Assembly (NCBI GenBank): GCA_947176295.1
Contig: CAMWQB010000001.1
Location: 4,760 to 68,759, forward strand
From: an uncultured Porphyromonadaceae bacterium
GTDB taxonomy: Bacteria > Bacteroidota > Bacteroidia > Bacteroidales > Muribaculaceae
DNA: 64,000 nucleotides
Direction of reading: 5' to 3'
In this document: positions 21,906-27,593 of the stretch, piece by piece
How positions within the stretch are numbered: position 1 is the stretch's first letter
Layout: the number at the start of each line of letters is the position of its first letter
Notes under the pieces: model-generated
Told to the model about the DNA's origin: nothing
The model's database searches: none
Seen by the model: only the letters and a program-made list of their open reading frames with translations
Made by a program: the position numbers and the translations under genes

Positions 21906-21937
21906 CAAAGATACAACTTTTCCCCCATCCCACCAAA
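21906..21937 (-). promoter_or_regulatory. sigma-A promoter of rpsA
   Basis: TTTG, 20 nt spacer, TATCTTTG on the minus strand. Confidence 0.75.
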
Positions 21938-22025
21938 CATTTACGTAAAAATATACACTCCGCAGATTTTGCTGCATATCAAGGCCGCCTCAACAAGCAA
22001 GTTTCCGCTCAACCCGGCGGATTTT

Positions 22026-22057
22026 TTTGCCCATCTCAAAAATTATCACTACCTTAG
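22026..22057 (+). promoter_or_regulatory. Putative promoter of the Rhs array (variant -7 element)
   Basis: TTTG (22026-22029), 20 nt spacer, TACCTTAG (22050-22057); one mismatch to TAnnTTTG. Confidence 0.5.
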
Positions 22058-22078
22058 AGCGCCCAAATCTCCTCGACC

Positions 22079-23158
22079 ATGAAAAAACGCTCCCTCTTCA
22101 CCTCCAACAGAAGCTCCCAACGCAGCTACGGGCGTATTGTCAACTCGGCCTACTCATCCTATCAGCAAAACTATGTCGCCGGACGTGTCTTCAAAGGCTC
22201 TACTTTGGAATATTCTTACTTCCCCGGCGGATACTTCGATGCCGAGGGCAACGTCCATTACACCATCAACGACTATCAGGGCTCCGTCGTGATGGTTGTC
22301 GATTCCGTGGGCAAAGTCGAGCAACACAATAGCTACTATCCCTATGGCGAGTTGCACCGAAATTCTTCGGGGCAGCGGAGGATGTATATCGGCAAGGAGC
22401 TCGTCGACGAAACGGCCTCCTACGACTATGGCCCGCGAGACTTCCGCTCGGCCGGCCTCTATTGGGAAGCCCCCGACATCAAAGCCGGCGACTATCCCAA
22501 CACCGCCCCATACGTCATGTGCGCCGCAAATCCCATCCGCAATTCCGACCCGACAGGGATGAAAATATGGAAAATGAACGAAACCGGCCAAATATTAGGA
22601 ACCGAGGAAAATGCTGATATTGACGGTGATTATATTTATATTTTTAATAATGACGGTGAAGTTATTGCAAAGTCAAGTAAGCATGAAACCGGAACAATAC
22701 AATTGGATGAATCGGGAACAGTGATCGATCCTAATACAAATGAACCACTCAAGGATAATGAAGGAAAGAAGGTTACATATACATCTCTGAAAGTAAAGGG
22801 CGACGAATCTGGAGAACAGCTCTTCAAATTTCTTGCATCAGAGTTAACTGCAAAAGGATCATATATAGAATTTTCATTAATACAAGTAGGGTTTGAGGGA
22901 ACGGGCTCTAATTTCATAACAACAAGCCATCAGAAAGCCTCAGAAGCCGGAGGTGGACAATTATATAGGAATAAATTAGTAAAGGGATATGTCATTCGTT
23001 CAGATTCTCACTCTCATCCTGATAATAACACCGCAAGTAAGACAGATAAAGACACAAAGGAGCAATTTATTAAAAATCAAAAAACAAAAAATACCCAAAA
23101 ATGCATTCCCAAATTTAGGGTTCTAAACTCTTTAACCAATGATTTTTCCGAATATTAA
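22079..23158 (+). CDS. N-terminally short Rhs-core protein with a C-terminal JAB/MPN-like toxin domain
   Basis: Rhs core (NDYQGSV..EQHNSYYPYGE, YIGKE, YDYGPR, PY..CAANPI..DPTG); tip has a conserved E (YIEFS) plus HSHP..AS..D JAB metal motif. Confidence 0.8.
   Translation: MKKRSLFTSNRSSQRSYGRIVNSAYSSYQQNYVAGRVFKGSTLEYSYFPGGYFDAEGNVHYTINDYQGSVVMVVDSVGKVEQHNSYYPYGELHRNSSGQRRMYIGKELVDETASYDYGPRDFRSAGLYWEAPDIKAGDYPNTAPYVMCAANPIRNSDPTGMKIWKMNETGQILGTEENADIDGDYIYIFNNDGEVIAKSSKHETGTIQLDESGTVIDPNTNEPLKDNEGKKVTYTSLKVKGDESGEQLFKFLASELTAKGSYIEFSLIQVGFEGTGSNFITTSHQKASEAGGGQLYRNKLVKGYVIRSDSHSHPDNNTASKTDKDTKEQFIKNQKTKNTQKCIPKFRVLNSLTNDFSEY
22368..22575 (+). repeat. Rhs-core repeat, copy 1
   Basis: 22368-22551 is identical to 24306-24489; 22368-22575 differs from 25840-26047 at 9 of 208 nt (manual alignment). 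Confidence 0.95.
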
Positions 23159-23759
23159 ATATATGCCTATGAGGTTAATTTTAATTGTTTTTTGCCTTTT
23201 GGCTGAGTGCTTTACCTCCGTTTTTGCACTCGAGCCCAGTCCTGTCATAGCCGAGAAAGTGGAGGTGCGCGACAAGGCCCTTTTCGAAGCGATAGACAGC
23301 CTGATACAGACAACCGACCACAAAATGACAATCAAACCGGAATATCGGGATAAAGTACGCGACTCGTTCAACACCCTTACACTATCCCGAGATGATAGTA
23401 AATATCAAGAATCGACTGAGAATACAGCCGACGATGAATTCTGGCTCTTTGTCTATGCCGGAGAATCGTCCAATCACGATCATATCGGCGATTATTATTT
23501 CACGACACCACACTACAGGTTCGTATCCTATCATTATGATGCCAAACTATTTAAGAAAAAGCTGGGCACTAAGAAATGTATAGGCTATAATTATTTATGG
23601 TTTGATGACATCGGGCCGTCATGGTATTTTAAGATTAAGGACAGTCGGATTCTGGAGGCATATTATCATTACGACGAACTCGATGATTTTAAAGGTGTTG
23701 TTTACGACATCCTGAATAAAAAAATTGTTTCGGAAGGGTACGGAGAAATCTTTAATTAA
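23139..23759 (+). CDS. Putative immunity protein P1 (signal peptide)
   Basis: Overlaps the toxin 3' end; AT-rich; hydrophobic N-terminus (true start may be 23163 or 23169); shares W-x-F-x-I and YDILNK motifs with P3/P4. Confidence 0.6.
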   Translation: MIFPNIKYMPMRLILIVFCLLAECFTSVFALEPSPVIAEKVEVRDKALFEAIDSLIQTTDHKMTIKPEYRDKVRDSFNTLTLSRDDSKYQESTENTADDEFWLFVYAGESSNHDHIGDYYFTTPHYRFVSYHYDAKLFKKKLGTKKCIGYNYLWFDDIGPSWYFKIKDSRILEAYYHYDELDDFKGVVYDILNKKIVSEGYGEIFN

Positions 23760-23770
23760 AAAATTTAGCT

Positions 23771-24247
23771 ATGAAAAAATTATTATTGATCGCAATTCTG
23801 GCGGCAGGCTCAATCACAGCTGTTCCCTCGAAAAACCTTTCGCACGAGTGGAAACTCGTCAAAGACGAGACATTTTTCAACTATATCGATTCCATGCTCG
23901 ACCTGAACGACAGCACCCCCTTTATCGATATGGATCCGTGTGAAAGGCAGATGGTTCAGAGCGCAAAAAGATATTATAGAATCACTATCGATGACGGACT
24001 CCAAAAAGACTCCATTACAATAAATGACGGAAAACCTCACAGAATTCACATCGCACAATTTCGGTGGCTCATGCCTGATGCCAAATCGACCATAAAGCAC
24101 AAGGATCGCGTTTACTTTTTTACAGTGGATCACGCAGACGTCTTCAGGTCTTTCCATCCGAGCATCTCAAAAACTTCTTCAAAGAGCTGCCCCTGCCTTC
24201 CCGGGCAAGAATGGCAATTTGAATACACCGCTCAGGCCCGACCATGA
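23771..24247 (+). CDS. Putative immunity protein P2 (signal peptide; possibly C-terminally truncated paralog of P1)
   Basis: MKKLLLIAILAAGSITA signal; KDETFFNYIDSMLDLND resembles RDKALFEAIDSLIQTTD of P1; ends just after WQF. Confidence 0.55.
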   Translation: MKKLLLIAILAAGSITAVPSKNLSHEWKLVKDETFFNYIDSMLDLNDSTPFIDMDPCERQMVQSAKRYYRITIDDGLQKDSITINDGKPHRIHIAQFRWLMPDAKSTIKHKDRVYFFTVDHADVFRSFHPSISKTSSKSCPCLPGQEWQFEYTAQARP

Positions 24248-24259
24248 TAGCCCCCGCCC

Positions 24260-25138
24260 ATGAACACCCGCCACCGCACTCCTTCACCCCTACCCAGCTC
24301 CCGAGCGGGGCAGCGGAGGATGTATATCGGCAAGGAGCTCGTCGACGAAACGGCCTCCTACGACTATGGCCCGCGAGACTTCCGCTCGGCCGGCCTCTAT
24401 TGGGAAGCCCCCGACATCAAAGCCGGCGACTATCCCAACACCGCCCCATACGTCATGTGCGCCGCAAATCCCATCCGCAATTCCGACCCTACGGGGATGG
24501 ACATATCTGTTAAAAATTCACAAGGAGAACTTTTGTTCGTTTTTCCCTATAAAGAAGACTATACCATTGACCTTCCGGTAGATATTCCTTCAGATCCAGC
24601 CAAAATTGGAATTGGCATCGAATATGCTATAACGGGTAGCACATCAGGTGGAACAAAAATGGAAGGATCGGGAATTGCAGGCGTAGTTGTTTTTCTTGGC
24701 GGCAAAGATGCAGGATATGTTTATTCTTACGCTGGTGGAGAAATTGGTGGTGGTATAGAAGGTTCTGTAGGAGTAGGCATAAGCGTAAATAAATCGATTT
24801 TCGTAACGTATCAATCTAAAGGAGATAAAACCGATCATAATCAATTTTCGGGAAAATATGTTTCTGTCGGTGGTTCTTTTAAAGCTATCTTTGGGAAGTC
24901 CAGCCTTTCTGTGTCTAAAGGTCTACAAGAAAAGGGAACTGATGCTGTATGGACAACAGTTGCTCTATCGGAGGGCTGCGAAGCATTCCTTGGGCTAAAA
25001 TCTCCAATTTCACCTTCCATAAGCATCTGCCGGGGTAAAACAGCATTCCTCCCTGGTCAAGATGTTGGCAAACCAAAAAATTTCGCACAAAAAACTTATA
25101 GCTGGGGAAAACTTATTCAACTATGTCTTCGTAAATAA
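24260..25138 (+). CDS. Orphan Rhs module 2: short core plus a Gly-rich toxin tip of unknown family
   Basis: GQRRMYIGKE...DPTG core identical to module 1, followed by an unrelated AT-rich C-terminus. Confidence 0.75.
   Translation: MNTRHRTPSPLPSSRAGQRRMYIGKELVDETASYDYGPRDFRSAGLYWEAPDIKAGDYPNTAPYVMCAANPIRNSDPTGMDISVKNSQGELLFVFPYKEDYTIDLPVDIPSDPAKIGIGIEYAITGSTSGGTKMEGSGIAGVVVFLGGKDAGYVYSYAGGEIGGGIEGSVGVGISVNKSIFVTYQSKGDKTDHNQFSGKYVSVGGSFKAIFGKSSLSVSKGLQEKGTDAVWTTVALSEGCEAFLGLKSPISPSISICRGKTAFLPGQDVGKPKNFAQKTYSWGKLIQLCLRK
24306..24489 (+). repeat. Rhs-core repeat, copy 2
   Basis: 184 bp identical to 22368-22551. Confidence 0.95.
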
Positions 25139-25149
25139 CCGAATTTATT

Positions 25150-25716
25150 ATGGGCAAACTCTTCAAACTCTATCCTCATAATTCACCTGAGCTCAAACTC
25201 ACACGTAAACAAATGATTATATATCGCATAATTCGTTTTGTTATGGTGGTGATTTTTATAATTGGATCTTTTTTTATGATGACCCACGACATGCGAGTTA
25301 ACGATGAAAAATATAGTCTCTATAAATCACAATCTCAATGGCGCATGCTGGGGCAGATGAAGTCGTTTTCGGGGCCTCTGTATGGAGCGCGAGGGAACAC
25401 TCCGACGCAGGATCTATATCTAATTGAAATTGATGTCGATACAATCGAGTTTTTTCGCAATGATCTTCCGGAGGACAGCCCTTATTACGGTGTATATAAC
25501 AAAAACACCAAGAAGGCTTACATAACTACAACTCTATATAATTCAGAGACCAACGACACATACAAACAATCCGATCCCAAACCATATCTTTATGCAGACA
25601 CAAGAAAATCTTTTGCCCTTATTGGCTCCAACGGATTAAATAACGGAATATATATAAATATGAAACCTGCGCTTGAAGAAATGGCCAAAGACACCGCCAA
25701 CTTCATAAAATTCTGA
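25150..25716 (+). CDS. Putative membrane-anchored immunity protein for module 2
   Basis: Starts 11 nt after the toxin stop; one TM helix (IIRFVMVVIFIIGSFFMM); AT-rich. Confidence 0.6.
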   Translation: MGKLFKLYPHNSPELKLTRKQMIIYRIIRFVMVVIFIIGSFFMMTHDMRVNDEKYSLYKSQSQWRMLGQMKSFSGPLYGARGNTPTQDLYLIEIDVDTIEFFRNDLPEDSPYYGVYNKNTKKAYITTTLYNSETNDTYKQSDPKPYLYADTRKSFALIGSNGLNNGIYINMKPALEEMAKDTANFIKF

Positions 25717-25734
25717 CCGCAATCCTCTCCCCAT

Positions 25735-25766
25735 TTTGCACCTTTCCCGAAAAATCACTATATTGC
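25735..25766 (+). promoter_or_regulatory. Possible internal promoter before Rhs module 3
   Basis: TTTG, 20 nt spacer, TATATTGC; shares an ATCACTA segment with the module 1 promoter; weak -7 match. Confidence 0.35.
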
Positions 25767-25790
25767 ACTCGGAATGCCCTACCTTATGCC

Positions 25791-26054
25791 ATGAAGACCA
25801 ATCGATGCAACACAACTCACTTCTGCCACCGTAATCCGGCGGGGCAGCGGAGGATGTATATCGGCAAGGAGCTCGTCGACGAGACGGCCTCCTACGACTA
25901 TGGTCCGCGAGACTTCCGCTCAGCCGGCCTCTATTGGGAAGCCCCCGACATGAAAGCCGGTGTCTATCCCAACACCAACCCATACGTCATGTGCGCCGCA
26001 AATCCCATCCGCAATTCCGACCCCACAGGGATGAAAATATGGAAAATAGAATGA
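25791..26054 (+). pseudogene. Orphan Rhs module 3 with the toxin tip deleted (DPTG-MKIWKIE-stop)
   Basis: Core repeat, then the same first five tip codons as module 1, then a stop overlapping the next ATG (ATGA). Confidence 0.75.
25840..26047 (+). repeat. Rhs-core repeat, copy 3
   Basis: 199/208 nt identical to 22368-22575. Confidence 0.93.
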
Positions 26055-26869
26055 AGACATTATTTAAGTTTATCCGCTGCAAGGCTTGCTTATGCGCTTG
26101 CCTGCTCGTTAGCGGCTTGGTTTACGGCTCTCCCCAATATAGAGTGGAACAGTCAATTGTGCATGAGGGGGAGGGATATCCGGATGGAAAGCTTTTTTCC
26201 CCTTTTTCAGTCCCCACGAAAATACAGGACGGTGAAAATGCGGGTGGAAACGACATCGTGAAATATCTCGACAAGGACATTCTCCGAGATCTACTCCTCG
26301 CGAATAAAAATGAATATAAGGGGAGTTATTTTCTAACTTCGTACGTAGCAACCAAGCCAAACAGGATCCTTGCGGAAATGATGGAAACCGTGCAGTCTAC
26401 TGATTTAGGGAAGCTGTTCAGACCTGATTGTTATATAGACAACTATCTACTGCTCACCATCTACCCGTATCCGGTCAAAATCATATCGACATTATTTGAT
26501 CCAGGTCAATACAACATCGACTTGAAATCGCCGGTTGACCTGATTTCAGAGGGCGAATATGAGGTATATCTCACCTACTGGCCGTGGCCGCATTGGAAGC
26601 CGGATTATGCGTTTGTGTATGATAATCTTTTGGTCTATACCGAGCAATGGATCAATGATGTGTTCACAGAAGAAACAGGATGCGTTACGGAACTACACCC
26701 ACATAAGCACGATATCTTTGACCGGCGGGCAGTGCGCTGGAAGTTCACAATCCTTAATGGGGAAATTGTCGGGAAATCAGTAATGTCGGAAGGCTTCGAC
26801 TACCGATACGCTGTCGTTTACGATTACAATACAAAGCAATTAAAACGCATAGACGTAAATTATGAATAA
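26051..26869 (+). CDS. Putative immunity protein P3 (signal peptide)
   Basis: Start moved to MKTLFKF (26051); clear paralog of P4 (YAFVYD..QWI..AVRWKFTI..YD..K..RID). Confidence 0.65.
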   Translation: MKTLFKFIRCKACLCACLLVSGLVYGSPQYRVEQSIVHEGEGYPDGKLFSPFSVPTKIQDGENAGGNDIVKYLDKDILRDLLLANKNEYKGSYFLTSYVATKPNRILAEMMETVQSTDLGKLFRPDCYIDNYLLLTIYPYPVKIISTLFDPGQYNIDLKSPVDLISEGEYEVYLTYWPWPHWKPDYAFVYDNLLVYTEQWINDVFTEETGCVTELHPHKHDIFDRRAVRWKFTILNGEIVGKSVMSEGFDYRYAVVYDYNTKQLKRIDVNYE

Positions 26870-27593
26870 GACACTTTTTCACAATTCCGGATTACGGCTA
26901 TATTTTCTGAAACTGACGGCATTCATATTTATTCTGGCATCCTTGTCGGTTGAGATTTCTGCACAAAAATACAGCAACGACGGATACCGACATTCGTTCT
27001 TCGTGTCGAAATATGAATGGGAATCGACAGTGGAACTCTTCCCCGATGAATTCTGCGGATACACTACGAGGCTCAAGTTTGTACATGCTCCGGAAAATAA
27101 CACTCTTTCGAAAATGCTTGACCTGATCGACAACACCGATATATCCACAGTTTCAGATGATACGGCCCACCCATCATTTTTCTATGAAATATTCGTTTAC
27201 GACAAGCCTGTCGTCATGCTATACCCGGCCATAAGTCCTATTCTCGTGGAACAACCGACGGACACCGTCGGACCTCTTGACAAAGGCTTCAAGGAAGTGT
27301 ATATAGAAGTTCAGCCATCGATGGACATAGATGCGAAATATAAATTCGTATACGACGACAAGCTTATGTTTTCCCGCCAGTGGATCGACGGGCTGTTCGG
27401 CAAAGAGATTACCGCTCAGACCCTCATCAGCCAGCCTAAGCTGCTGCCGCATGCTGTTCTATGGAAATTCACTCTAATCGATGGGACAATCAAGCAGTGC
27501 GAAGTATTAGTCGAAGACATGAGCAGGCCCGCTATCTGCATATATGACGTCCTGAACAAATCCATACGCAAAATCGACATGCCCCGACGCTGA
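26862..27593 (+). CDS. Putative immunity protein P4 (signal peptide)
   Basis: Overlaps the P3 stop; YKFVYD..QWI..AVLWKFTL..YDVLNK..KID. Confidence 0.65.
   Translation: MNKTLFHNSGLRLYFLKLTAFIFILASLSVEISAQKYSNDGYRHSFFVSKYEWESTVELFPDEFCGYTTRLKFVHAPENNTLSKMLDLIDNTDISTVSDDTAHPSFFYEIFVYDKPVVMLYPAISPILVEQPTDTVGPLDKGFKEVYIEVQPSMDIDAKYKFVYDDKLMFSRQWIDGLFGKEITAQTLISQPKLLPHAVLWKFTLIDGTIKQCEVLVEDMSRPAICIYDVLNKSIRKIDMPRR

Follow-up and report, generated by a model that had tools for sequence, protein, structure and literature searches.

Orphan rhs toxin/immunity modules that arise by C-terminal displacement have been described in Enterobacteria and in Snodgrassella alvi (PMC5727410, citing Jackson 2009, PMC2935791, and Koskiniemi 2014, PMC3967940), and in the architecture described there the row of modules begins with a large, complete Rhs gene (PMC5727410). 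Here we examine a row of Rhs cassettes from an uncultured Porphyromonadaceae bacterium of the mouse gut, assigned by GTDB to the family Muribaculaceae. The array occupies positions 22026-27593 of a 64,000-nt stretch of contig CAMWQB010000001.1 (assembly GCA_947176295.1; contig positions 4,760-68,759, forward strand), to which we refer as the window and in whose numbering all positions are given unless another locus is named. A first-pass annotation made from the sequence alone had recognized an array of Rhs polymorphic-toxin cassettes built on near-identical core repeats, and our analysis upholds this description. The gene upstream of the array is rpsA, on the opposite strand, and no complete rhs gene heads the row. 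We conclude that the region is probably a row of three orphan Rhs C-terminal cassettes in the chromosome, a product of C-terminal displacement that lacks a head gene. Its most likely role would be immunity against the Rhs toxins of neighboring bacteria, together with the storage of two intact toxin tips.

Results

Three direct repeats encode the end of the Rhs core

The array contains three direct repeats (22355-22575, 24293-24513, and 25827-26047), which encode GQRRMYIGKELVDETASYDYGPRDFRSAGLYWEAPD..NPIRNSDPTGM, the final ~67 residues of the Rhs-associated core. Alignment confirmed the first-pass account of these repeats and the count of three: copies 1 and 2 run for 184 bp without a difference (22368-22551), and between copies 1 and 3 there are 9 mismatches in 208 nt. 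The perfect identity of copies 1 and 2 over 184 bp implies a recent conversion or duplication. The 20 nt directly after the repeat, GGGATGAAAATATGGAAAAT, are also common to copies 3 and 1, and an invariant 42-nt stretch has three exact matches in the window versus none in 100 shuffles. Copies 1 and 3 score 37.7 and 38.0 bits against the TIGR03696 model (Rhs_assc_core) and so exceed its cut-off of 32.5 bits, of which copy 2 falls slightly short (30.7 bits). All three copies end in the DPxG cleavage motif, in the form DPTGM. In a sequence search of the PDB, the only matches were to TccC3 and RHS2, at their C-terminal plug regions.

The repeats have a GC content of 54-59%, as does the surrounding chromosome, versus 32-45% for the DNA 3′ of each repeat, and the alternation of GC-rich repeats with AT-rich DNA noted at first sight is thus real. 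Neither a search for the 42-nt repeat in species-representative genomes nor a 31-nt search of the JGI metagenomes returned an exact match; the strain is not in either collection.

The leading ORF is the C-terminal end of an Rhs protein

The first open reading frame (ORF) of the array, ORF1, opens with 13 residues of novel sequence. Residues 14-165 comprise the final ~150 residues of the Rhs shell and the core, up to DPTGM, and residues 166-359 form a linker and a Toxin-JAB1 domain. This domain (PF15659) is the sole Pfam match in ORF1 (E = 1.5e-17; 64.2 bits against a gathering cut-off of 21), and its metal-binding motif (E...HxH...S..D) is intact, with E264, H311xH313, S320, and D323. The E...HxH...D core of the motif is found in most JAB-tip homologs, while the S position is variable. 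The N-terminus of ORF1 is not hydrophobic and lacks a signal peptide, and Pfam finds no PAAR domain. Pfam, tblastn, and hydrophobicity thus agree with the initial description of a 359-residue leading ORF that lacks a long YD-repeat cage, a signal peptide, and a PAAR domain.

We searched the window by tblastn with six full-length Rhs proteins (1,931-2,092 aa) from related bacteria. Only the final ~130-290 residues of these queries align to ORF1, their DUF6443-bearing parts have no match in the window, and no Rhs remnant other than the three core copies was found in the 64 kb. ORF1 corresponds to just ~8% of the 1,931-2,092-aa Rhs proteins in related Muribaculaceae, at their C-terminal end. The YD-repeat cage shell takes roughly 1,000 residues or more, of which ORF1 has only about 150; because only these last shell residues remain, ORF1 would be unable to form a cage or to be delivered alone.

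The point of truncation is sharp. In each of the four closest relatives, homology at the DNA level sets in abruptly at 22117/22118; two of these relatives are long Rhs genes (1,257 aa or more) that are cut off by contig ends. Since homology to all relatives starts there, the sequence 5′ of 22118, including the first 13 codons of ORF1, is unrelated to them. The sequence relatives of ORF1 are without exception short (50 of 50 are 220-614 aa long) and many start inside the YD repeats, so the database is evidently full of orphan fragments. The exact ORF1 product was not on record when looked up. Compared with a 67%-identical orphan of another species, ORF1 has a ratio of nonsynonymous to synonymous substitution rates (dN/dS) of 0.06 in the core and 0.14 in the tip, with dS saturated. 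The ORF1 protein has been conserved, a signal in which dN/dS does not separate the share of time that it spent attached to a full-length gene.

Cassette 2 carries a predicted all-β tip, and cassette 3 has lost its toxin

Cassette 2 encodes a C-terminal tip (tip 2), for which a search of 5.8 billion proteins gave no close relative. A full HMMER scan recovered 21 distant relatives with 29-44% identity over the matched stretch; the domain is C-terminal in every one of these proteins, several of which place it after an Rhs core and others on different scaffolds. The family shares the motif FLGGxDAGYVYSYxGGExG. Tip 2 falls under no Pfam family and has no relative of solved structure in the PDB. An alignment-based AlphaFold model (pLDDT 86, pTM 0.82) consists of long β-hairpins and a C-terminal helix, and a Foldseek comparison of this model with the PDB returned only generic β-barrel matches (TM about 0.2); a model computed from the single sequence was unusable (pLDDT 32). 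In all four genomes in which a full-length tip-2 homolog was found (loci L171-L174), the gene behind it codes for a protein of 170-215 aa that has a transmembrane helix at its N-terminus, as does imm2 behind tip 2. The partner proteins of L174, a locus that has four tandem copies of this small membrane-anchored protein, end in ..NPIKF, compared with ..NFIKF in imm2. Tip 2 is thus predicted to represent a rare, undescribed all-β C-terminal toxin family, and its membrane-anchored partner leads us to infer that it may act on a membrane target.

The third cassette has no toxin tip, but it is not a bare core, as its short ORF retains the first six tip codons shared with cassette 1. These codons begin KIWK, as does tip 1, and a homolog of the downstream gene imm3b follows a JAB tip in a related locus; for both reasons, cassette 3 is read as a JAB-type cassette from which the toxin has been deleted.

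Immunity-like genes follow the tips

The five immunity-like proteins of the array are listed in Table 1. Imm3a and imm3b share 26% identity (E = 3e-18), and a possible homology between imm1a and imm3a was rejected as not significant (E = 0.06-0.13). Homologs of imm1a and imm1b occur together after a JAB fragment in another species (L002/L006) and after an Rhs tip, likewise of the JAB type (L014). Locus L007 has the imm1a/imm1b pair without a toxin, and there a long Rhs gene (1,257 aa or more) with a JAB tip is immediately followed by the imm3b homolog, an ORF of 253 aa. The four JAB-linked proteins all have signal-peptide-like N-termini, which suggests that the cell envelope, and not the cytoplasm, is where the JAB1 metallopeptidase toxins act: the putative immunity proteins to these toxins would all be exported, which points to an envelope target. 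The loss of a toxin with its immunity genes kept, as in cassette 3 and in the L007 pair, suggests selection on immunity.

A second assembly of the strain has the same organization

The metagenome-assembled genome (MAG) GCA_029058335.1 comes from the same strain as the window (99.94-99.98% identity). Its first contig runs gap-free from EF-G through rpsA into ORF1 and its second from imm1a through copies 2 and 3 to recQ and polA, both in the order of the window; the assembly is broken between them at 23159-23251. The junction between imm1b and copy 2 recurs without a mismatch on a 161-nt contig of another metagenome, X1. Because an independently assembled MAG shares both the rpsA-ORF1 junction and the cassette order, the truncation of ORF1 is not an assembly artefact, and the idea that an assembly error hides a longer Rhs 5′ end did not hold.

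All seven differences between the window and the 11.2-kb first contig fall within 92 bp of ORF1 (Table 1), where they alter four amino acids, in two cases by two substitutions in a single codon; the second contig differs from the window at two positions only, both at its end (23222 and 23246). This cluster looks like gene conversion from a diverged homolog or, alternatively, like a mixture of paralog or strain reads in the MAG consensus, and it hints at a second Rhs-like homologous template. A diversity-generating retroelement was considered as the source and rejected, as the changes are not adenine-specific. A search for a full-length Rhs of GCA_029058335.1, queried with the shell taken from the nearest long relative, gave matches of at most 32% identity, none from the MAG, and the source of the query itself was not recovered either.

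The array lies in a housekeeping region and has one promoter-like site

The array sits amid core chromosomal genes (SecY, ribosomal proteins, EF-G, rpsA, an acyltransferase, recQ, polA, MutS, SerRS, and FtsZ), and the closest proteins in our database search come from Muribaculaceae MAGs. Its eight ORFs are all on the + strand, open, and tightly packed. The gene content of the 64 kb, together with tblastn, corroborates that the window holds no full-length Rhs and no T6SS, VgrG, PAAR, or transposase gene, and no integrase, transposase, or conjugation gene adjoins the array. The only tyrosine recombinase of the window is XerC/D-like, is encoded 24 kb away, and is probably a housekeeping enzyme. 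An acyltransferase adjoins the array both here and in L002, and we considered it as a member of the island; the two proteins are not homologous, however, so the coincidence is fortuitous and the candidate was rejected. A search for syntenic loci based on the acyltransferase found no close relatives of it, and RecQ loci in other genera, with identities of no more than 61%, lack synteny with the window, so that no cross-species counterpart of the rpsA-recQ interval was available for comparison.

A single promoter-like site of the Bacteroidetes type, TTTG-N20-TACCTTAG, lies on the + strand of the array. The site noted before the leading ORF is therefore present, but at least one match to this variant pattern occurs in 24 of 100 shuffles, which is not above chance. 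The perfect consensus TTTG-N17-23-TAnnTTTG has 7 sites in the window versus 0.53 expected, one of them upstream of rpsA on the - strand (21906-21937). A terminator-like hairpin directly 5′ of the promoter-like site has no preceding + strand gene and could be left over from a cassette or gene that once lay upstream.

Related loci are headed by a partner ORF and a long Rhs gene

In relatives, the canonical locus consists of a partner ORF of 314-335 aa, a DUF6443-Rhs gene of ~1,930-2,090 aa, an immunity gene, and orphan fragments. The four partner ORFs identified share 30-45% mutual identity, and the two with a precomputed annotation have no Pfam match on record; the protein may be a partner for Rhs export or assembly. 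No such ORF is present in the 64-kb window. ORFs of 320-330 aa that consist of a core and a JAB tip occur downstream of a 2,006-aa Rhs gene (L169) or within a long orphan array (L164), and Rhs fragments of 507-611 aa are also present in related Muribaculaceae. In these orphan arrays, a junction of ~90 nt is conserved, even where an array ends and there is no toxin behind it; the junction covers the 3′ end of a preceding ORF of ~217-239 aa and, for the core fragment that comes next, its ATG and initial codons. A different family, of lipoproteins of 214-247 aa, precedes the Rhs fragments in L005-L007.

Table 1 Features of the array and of loci compared with it (window positions unless a locus is named).
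Feature	Position	Strand	Remarks
Terminator-like hairpin with T7 run	22004-22021	+	Directly 5′ of the ORF1 promoter-like site
Promoter-like site TTTG-N20-TACCTTAG	22026-22057	+	Bacteroidetes-type; one mismatch to TAnnTTTG; ends 21 nt 5′ of the ORF1 ATG
Cassette 1 ORF (ORF1), 359 aa	22079-23158	+	ORF list, Pfam, tblastn, TIGR03696
Substitution cluster	22161-22252	+	92 bp of ORF1; window versus 11.2-kb contig of GCA_029058335.1
Core repeat copy 1	22368-22575	+	Repeat alignment
imm1a, 206 aa	23139-23759	+	Hydrophobic, signal-peptide-like N-terminus; homologs beside imm1b homologs
imm1b, 158 aa	23771-24247	+	Signal-peptide-like N-terminus
Cassette 2 ORF, 292 aa	24260-25138	+	15-codon leader, 64-residue core fragment, 213-aa tip
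Core repeat copy 2	24306-24496	+	Core fragment, 64 residues; repeat alignment
Tip 2, 213 aa	24497-25138	+	Undescribed C-terminal family, predicted all-β
imm2, 188 aa	25150-25716	+	One N-terminal transmembrane helix; C-terminus ..NFIKF
Cassette 3 ORF, 87 aa	25791-26054	+	16-codon leader, core fragment, six tip codons KIWKIE, stop
Core repeat copy 3	25840-26047	+	Repeat alignment
imm3a, 272 aa	26051-26869	+	Signal-peptide-like N-terminus; paralog of imm3b
imm3b, 243 aa	26862-27593	+	Signal-peptide-like N-terminus; paralog of imm3a
XerC/D-like tyrosine recombinase, 296 aa	51342-52232		Phage_int_SAM_1 and Phage_integrase domains; 24 kb from the array
Partner ORF of complete Rhs	L003 2684-3628; L004 1986-2954; L010 4038-5042; L013 4137-5105		Precedes Rhs in 4 of 4 loci
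~90-nt junctions	L164 2082-2173, 6167-6258, 8707-8798, 11161-11252; L169 9965-10051, 11600-11686		
Short-core Rhs array, Flavobacterium sp. 28A	L173 2255-12300		At least 6 cassettes, about 1.6-2.1 kb apart

Discussion

The reading of the region as an array of orphan cassettes is carried by direct observations, namely the repeats, the domains encoded, the point of truncation, the toxin-immunity synteny in relatives, and the identical organization of a second assembly. Under this reading, new tips and immunity genes would recombine in at the conserved core block and displace older tips downstream, and the leading ORF would itself be a 5′-truncated orphan that has kept the final ~150 shell residues. 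The five exported or membrane-anchored immunity-like proteins would protect the cell from the JAB-type and tip-2-type Rhs toxins of neighboring Muribaculaceae. The two intact tips may be stored alleles, which RecA-type recombination over the 184-208-bp repeat could re-attach to a full-length Rhs sharing the core block, whether resident or incoming. Recombination inside the array could delete cassettes, and the core repeats could mediate such deletions between copies. By inference, the small proteins would confer immunity, and the array would be expressed and would recombine.

Several observations weigh against this account. A full-length Rhs that could receive the stored tips is absent from the window. 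The immunity function of imm1a, imm1b, imm2, imm3a, and imm3b is assigned from position and synteny only, and none of the five matches a known family in Pfam and profile searches. In-frame ATG codons stand 15-16 codons 5′ of the core fragments and a promoter-like site precedes ORF1, so the toxin ORFs might be translated rather than silent. No rearranged allele was seen in two near-identical genomes, and the array was not found in any sequencing run searched; the sole run found by way of polA held only fragments of related organisms.

The array might instead be an inert relic, the remainder of a full-length Rhs locus that lost its 5′ ~5 kb and is now drifting, functionless, toward loss. The abrupt truncation at 22118, the toxin already gone from cassette 3, the score of copy 2 below the TIGR03696 cut-off, and the want of a close homolog of tip 2 would all be expected of such a remnant. 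Its eight ORFs have nonetheless stayed open and tightly packed, the JAB catalytic motif is intact, and conservation at the protein level relative to a different species is strong, as the dN/dS values given above attest. The perfect identity of copies 1 and 2 argues for recent recombination, and the retention of immunity after toxin loss, in cassette 3 as in the L007 pair, suggests selection. We therefore regard decay without function as unlikely.

The first-pass annotation had also proposed a stand-alone, switchable mini-Rhs system, in which ORF1, with a promoter of its own, would be a short toxin and deletions between copies 1 and 2 or copies 1 and 3 would switch the toxin or leave an immunity-only state. 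The proposal draws on the promoter-like site so close to the ORF1 ATG, on the intact ORF and JAB motif, on the direct orientation of identical 184-bp repeats, and on the lack of a long Rhs nearby, both here and at L002/L006. It is not sustained by the homology of ORF1, which starts only at 22118 and identifies the protein as the C-terminal end of a 1,931-2,092-aa Rhs: ORF1 retains about 8% of the shell of these relatives and has no delivery domain, signal peptide, or partner ORF. The core-plus-tip ORFs of 320-330 aa in related bacteria, too, are orphan units behind full-length genes or in an orphan array (L169 and L164). With a promoter-like pattern that is not above chance and no rearranged state between the two genomes compared, a mini-Rhs system is quite improbable.

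A related notion, that the headless array is a self-contained and selected state, appears more doubtful still. In it, the one promoter-like site would drive the whole row, the cage-less core-plus-tip proteins would be used through a carrier in trans or by release on lysis, and RecA-dependent deletions and duplications would switch among JAB, tip-2, and immunity-only states. Last, a collapse or mis-joining of repeats that hides a longer Rhs 5′ end or creates the three-copy layout can practically be dismissed: Rhs repeats often break or mis-join short-read assemblies, and the same-strain MAG is itself broken at one point within the array, but its separately assembled contigs give the order of the window, gap-free from EF-G into ORF1, and the X1 contig matches the imm1b/copy 2 junction exactly.

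We thus return to the array of orphan cassettes as the preferred reading. It makes the locus a Muribaculaceae example of the well-known orphan Rhs architecture, unusual only in its absent head gene. The headless state recurs in a related species, at the single-cassette locus L002/L006. The present example shows that arrays of this kind can be maintained amid housekeeping genes without their head gene, and that immunity genes can outlast the toxins, as in cassette 3 and in the L007 pair. This pattern agrees with the view that orphan immunity genes are kept by gut Bacteroidales as a defense. Two by-products lend themselves to expression testing, namely the tip-2 family with its conserved membrane-anchored partner and the JAB1-type toxins with their exported putative immunity proteins.

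Comparison with known systems

The array resembles the described orphan rhs modules in that its 5′-truncated fragments keep the 3′ end of the core, with divergent, AT-rich tip DNA and immunity-like genes behind them, and in that its core repeats are direct and would be able to recombine (PMC5727410). It differs from them in being preceded by rpsA, with no long Rhs within 64 kb, in the very short core fragments of cassettes 2 and 3 (~67 residues), and in the absence of a T6SS context.

With the DUF6443-type Rhs loci of Bacteroidales, Muribaculaceae included (L003, L004, L010, L013, and L169), the array shares the core family, the Toxin-JAB1 tips, the core-plus-tip orphan unit, and the families of putative immunity proteins. 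Amino-acid identity of the core to that of the window reaches 77% in L005-L008 and is 36-60% in the complete Rhs proteins of L003, L004, L010, and L013. Those arrays, however, are headed by a partner ORF and an Rhs gene of ~1,930-2,090 aa, and the window has neither.

The stand-alone JAB cassettes of a related species (L002/L006 and L005) likewise combine a JAB1-tipped short Rhs fragment and homologs of imm1a and imm1b, in a housekeeping neighborhood and with no long Rhs within 10 kb upstream. They are single cassettes, in contrast to the three of the window, and lie at another chromosomal site. Their fragment is 97 codons longer than that of the window and has a degenerate N-terminus, and a conserved lipoprotein (221-247 aa) that is absent from the window is encoded 5′ of it.

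A more distant parallel is the array of Flavobacterium sp. 28A (L173), in which tandem ORFs of ~300 aa each combine a short core fragment and a tip and are followed by a small immunity gene; one of its cassettes has a domain of the tip-2 family and then a transmembrane protein. This array differs in its greater number of cassettes, in its conserved 79-nt spacers with a strong hairpin, and in core repeats that are only 69-85% identical.

The acquired interbacterial defense islands of Bacteroidales carry orphan immunity genes on a mobile element or beside a recombinase. Measured against this definition, the array has no mobile element or adjacent recombinase, it holds two intact toxin domains, and its repeats are Rhs core coding sequence. 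What it has in common with these islands is that immunity is kept without a deliverable cognate toxin, as in the immunity-only third cassette.

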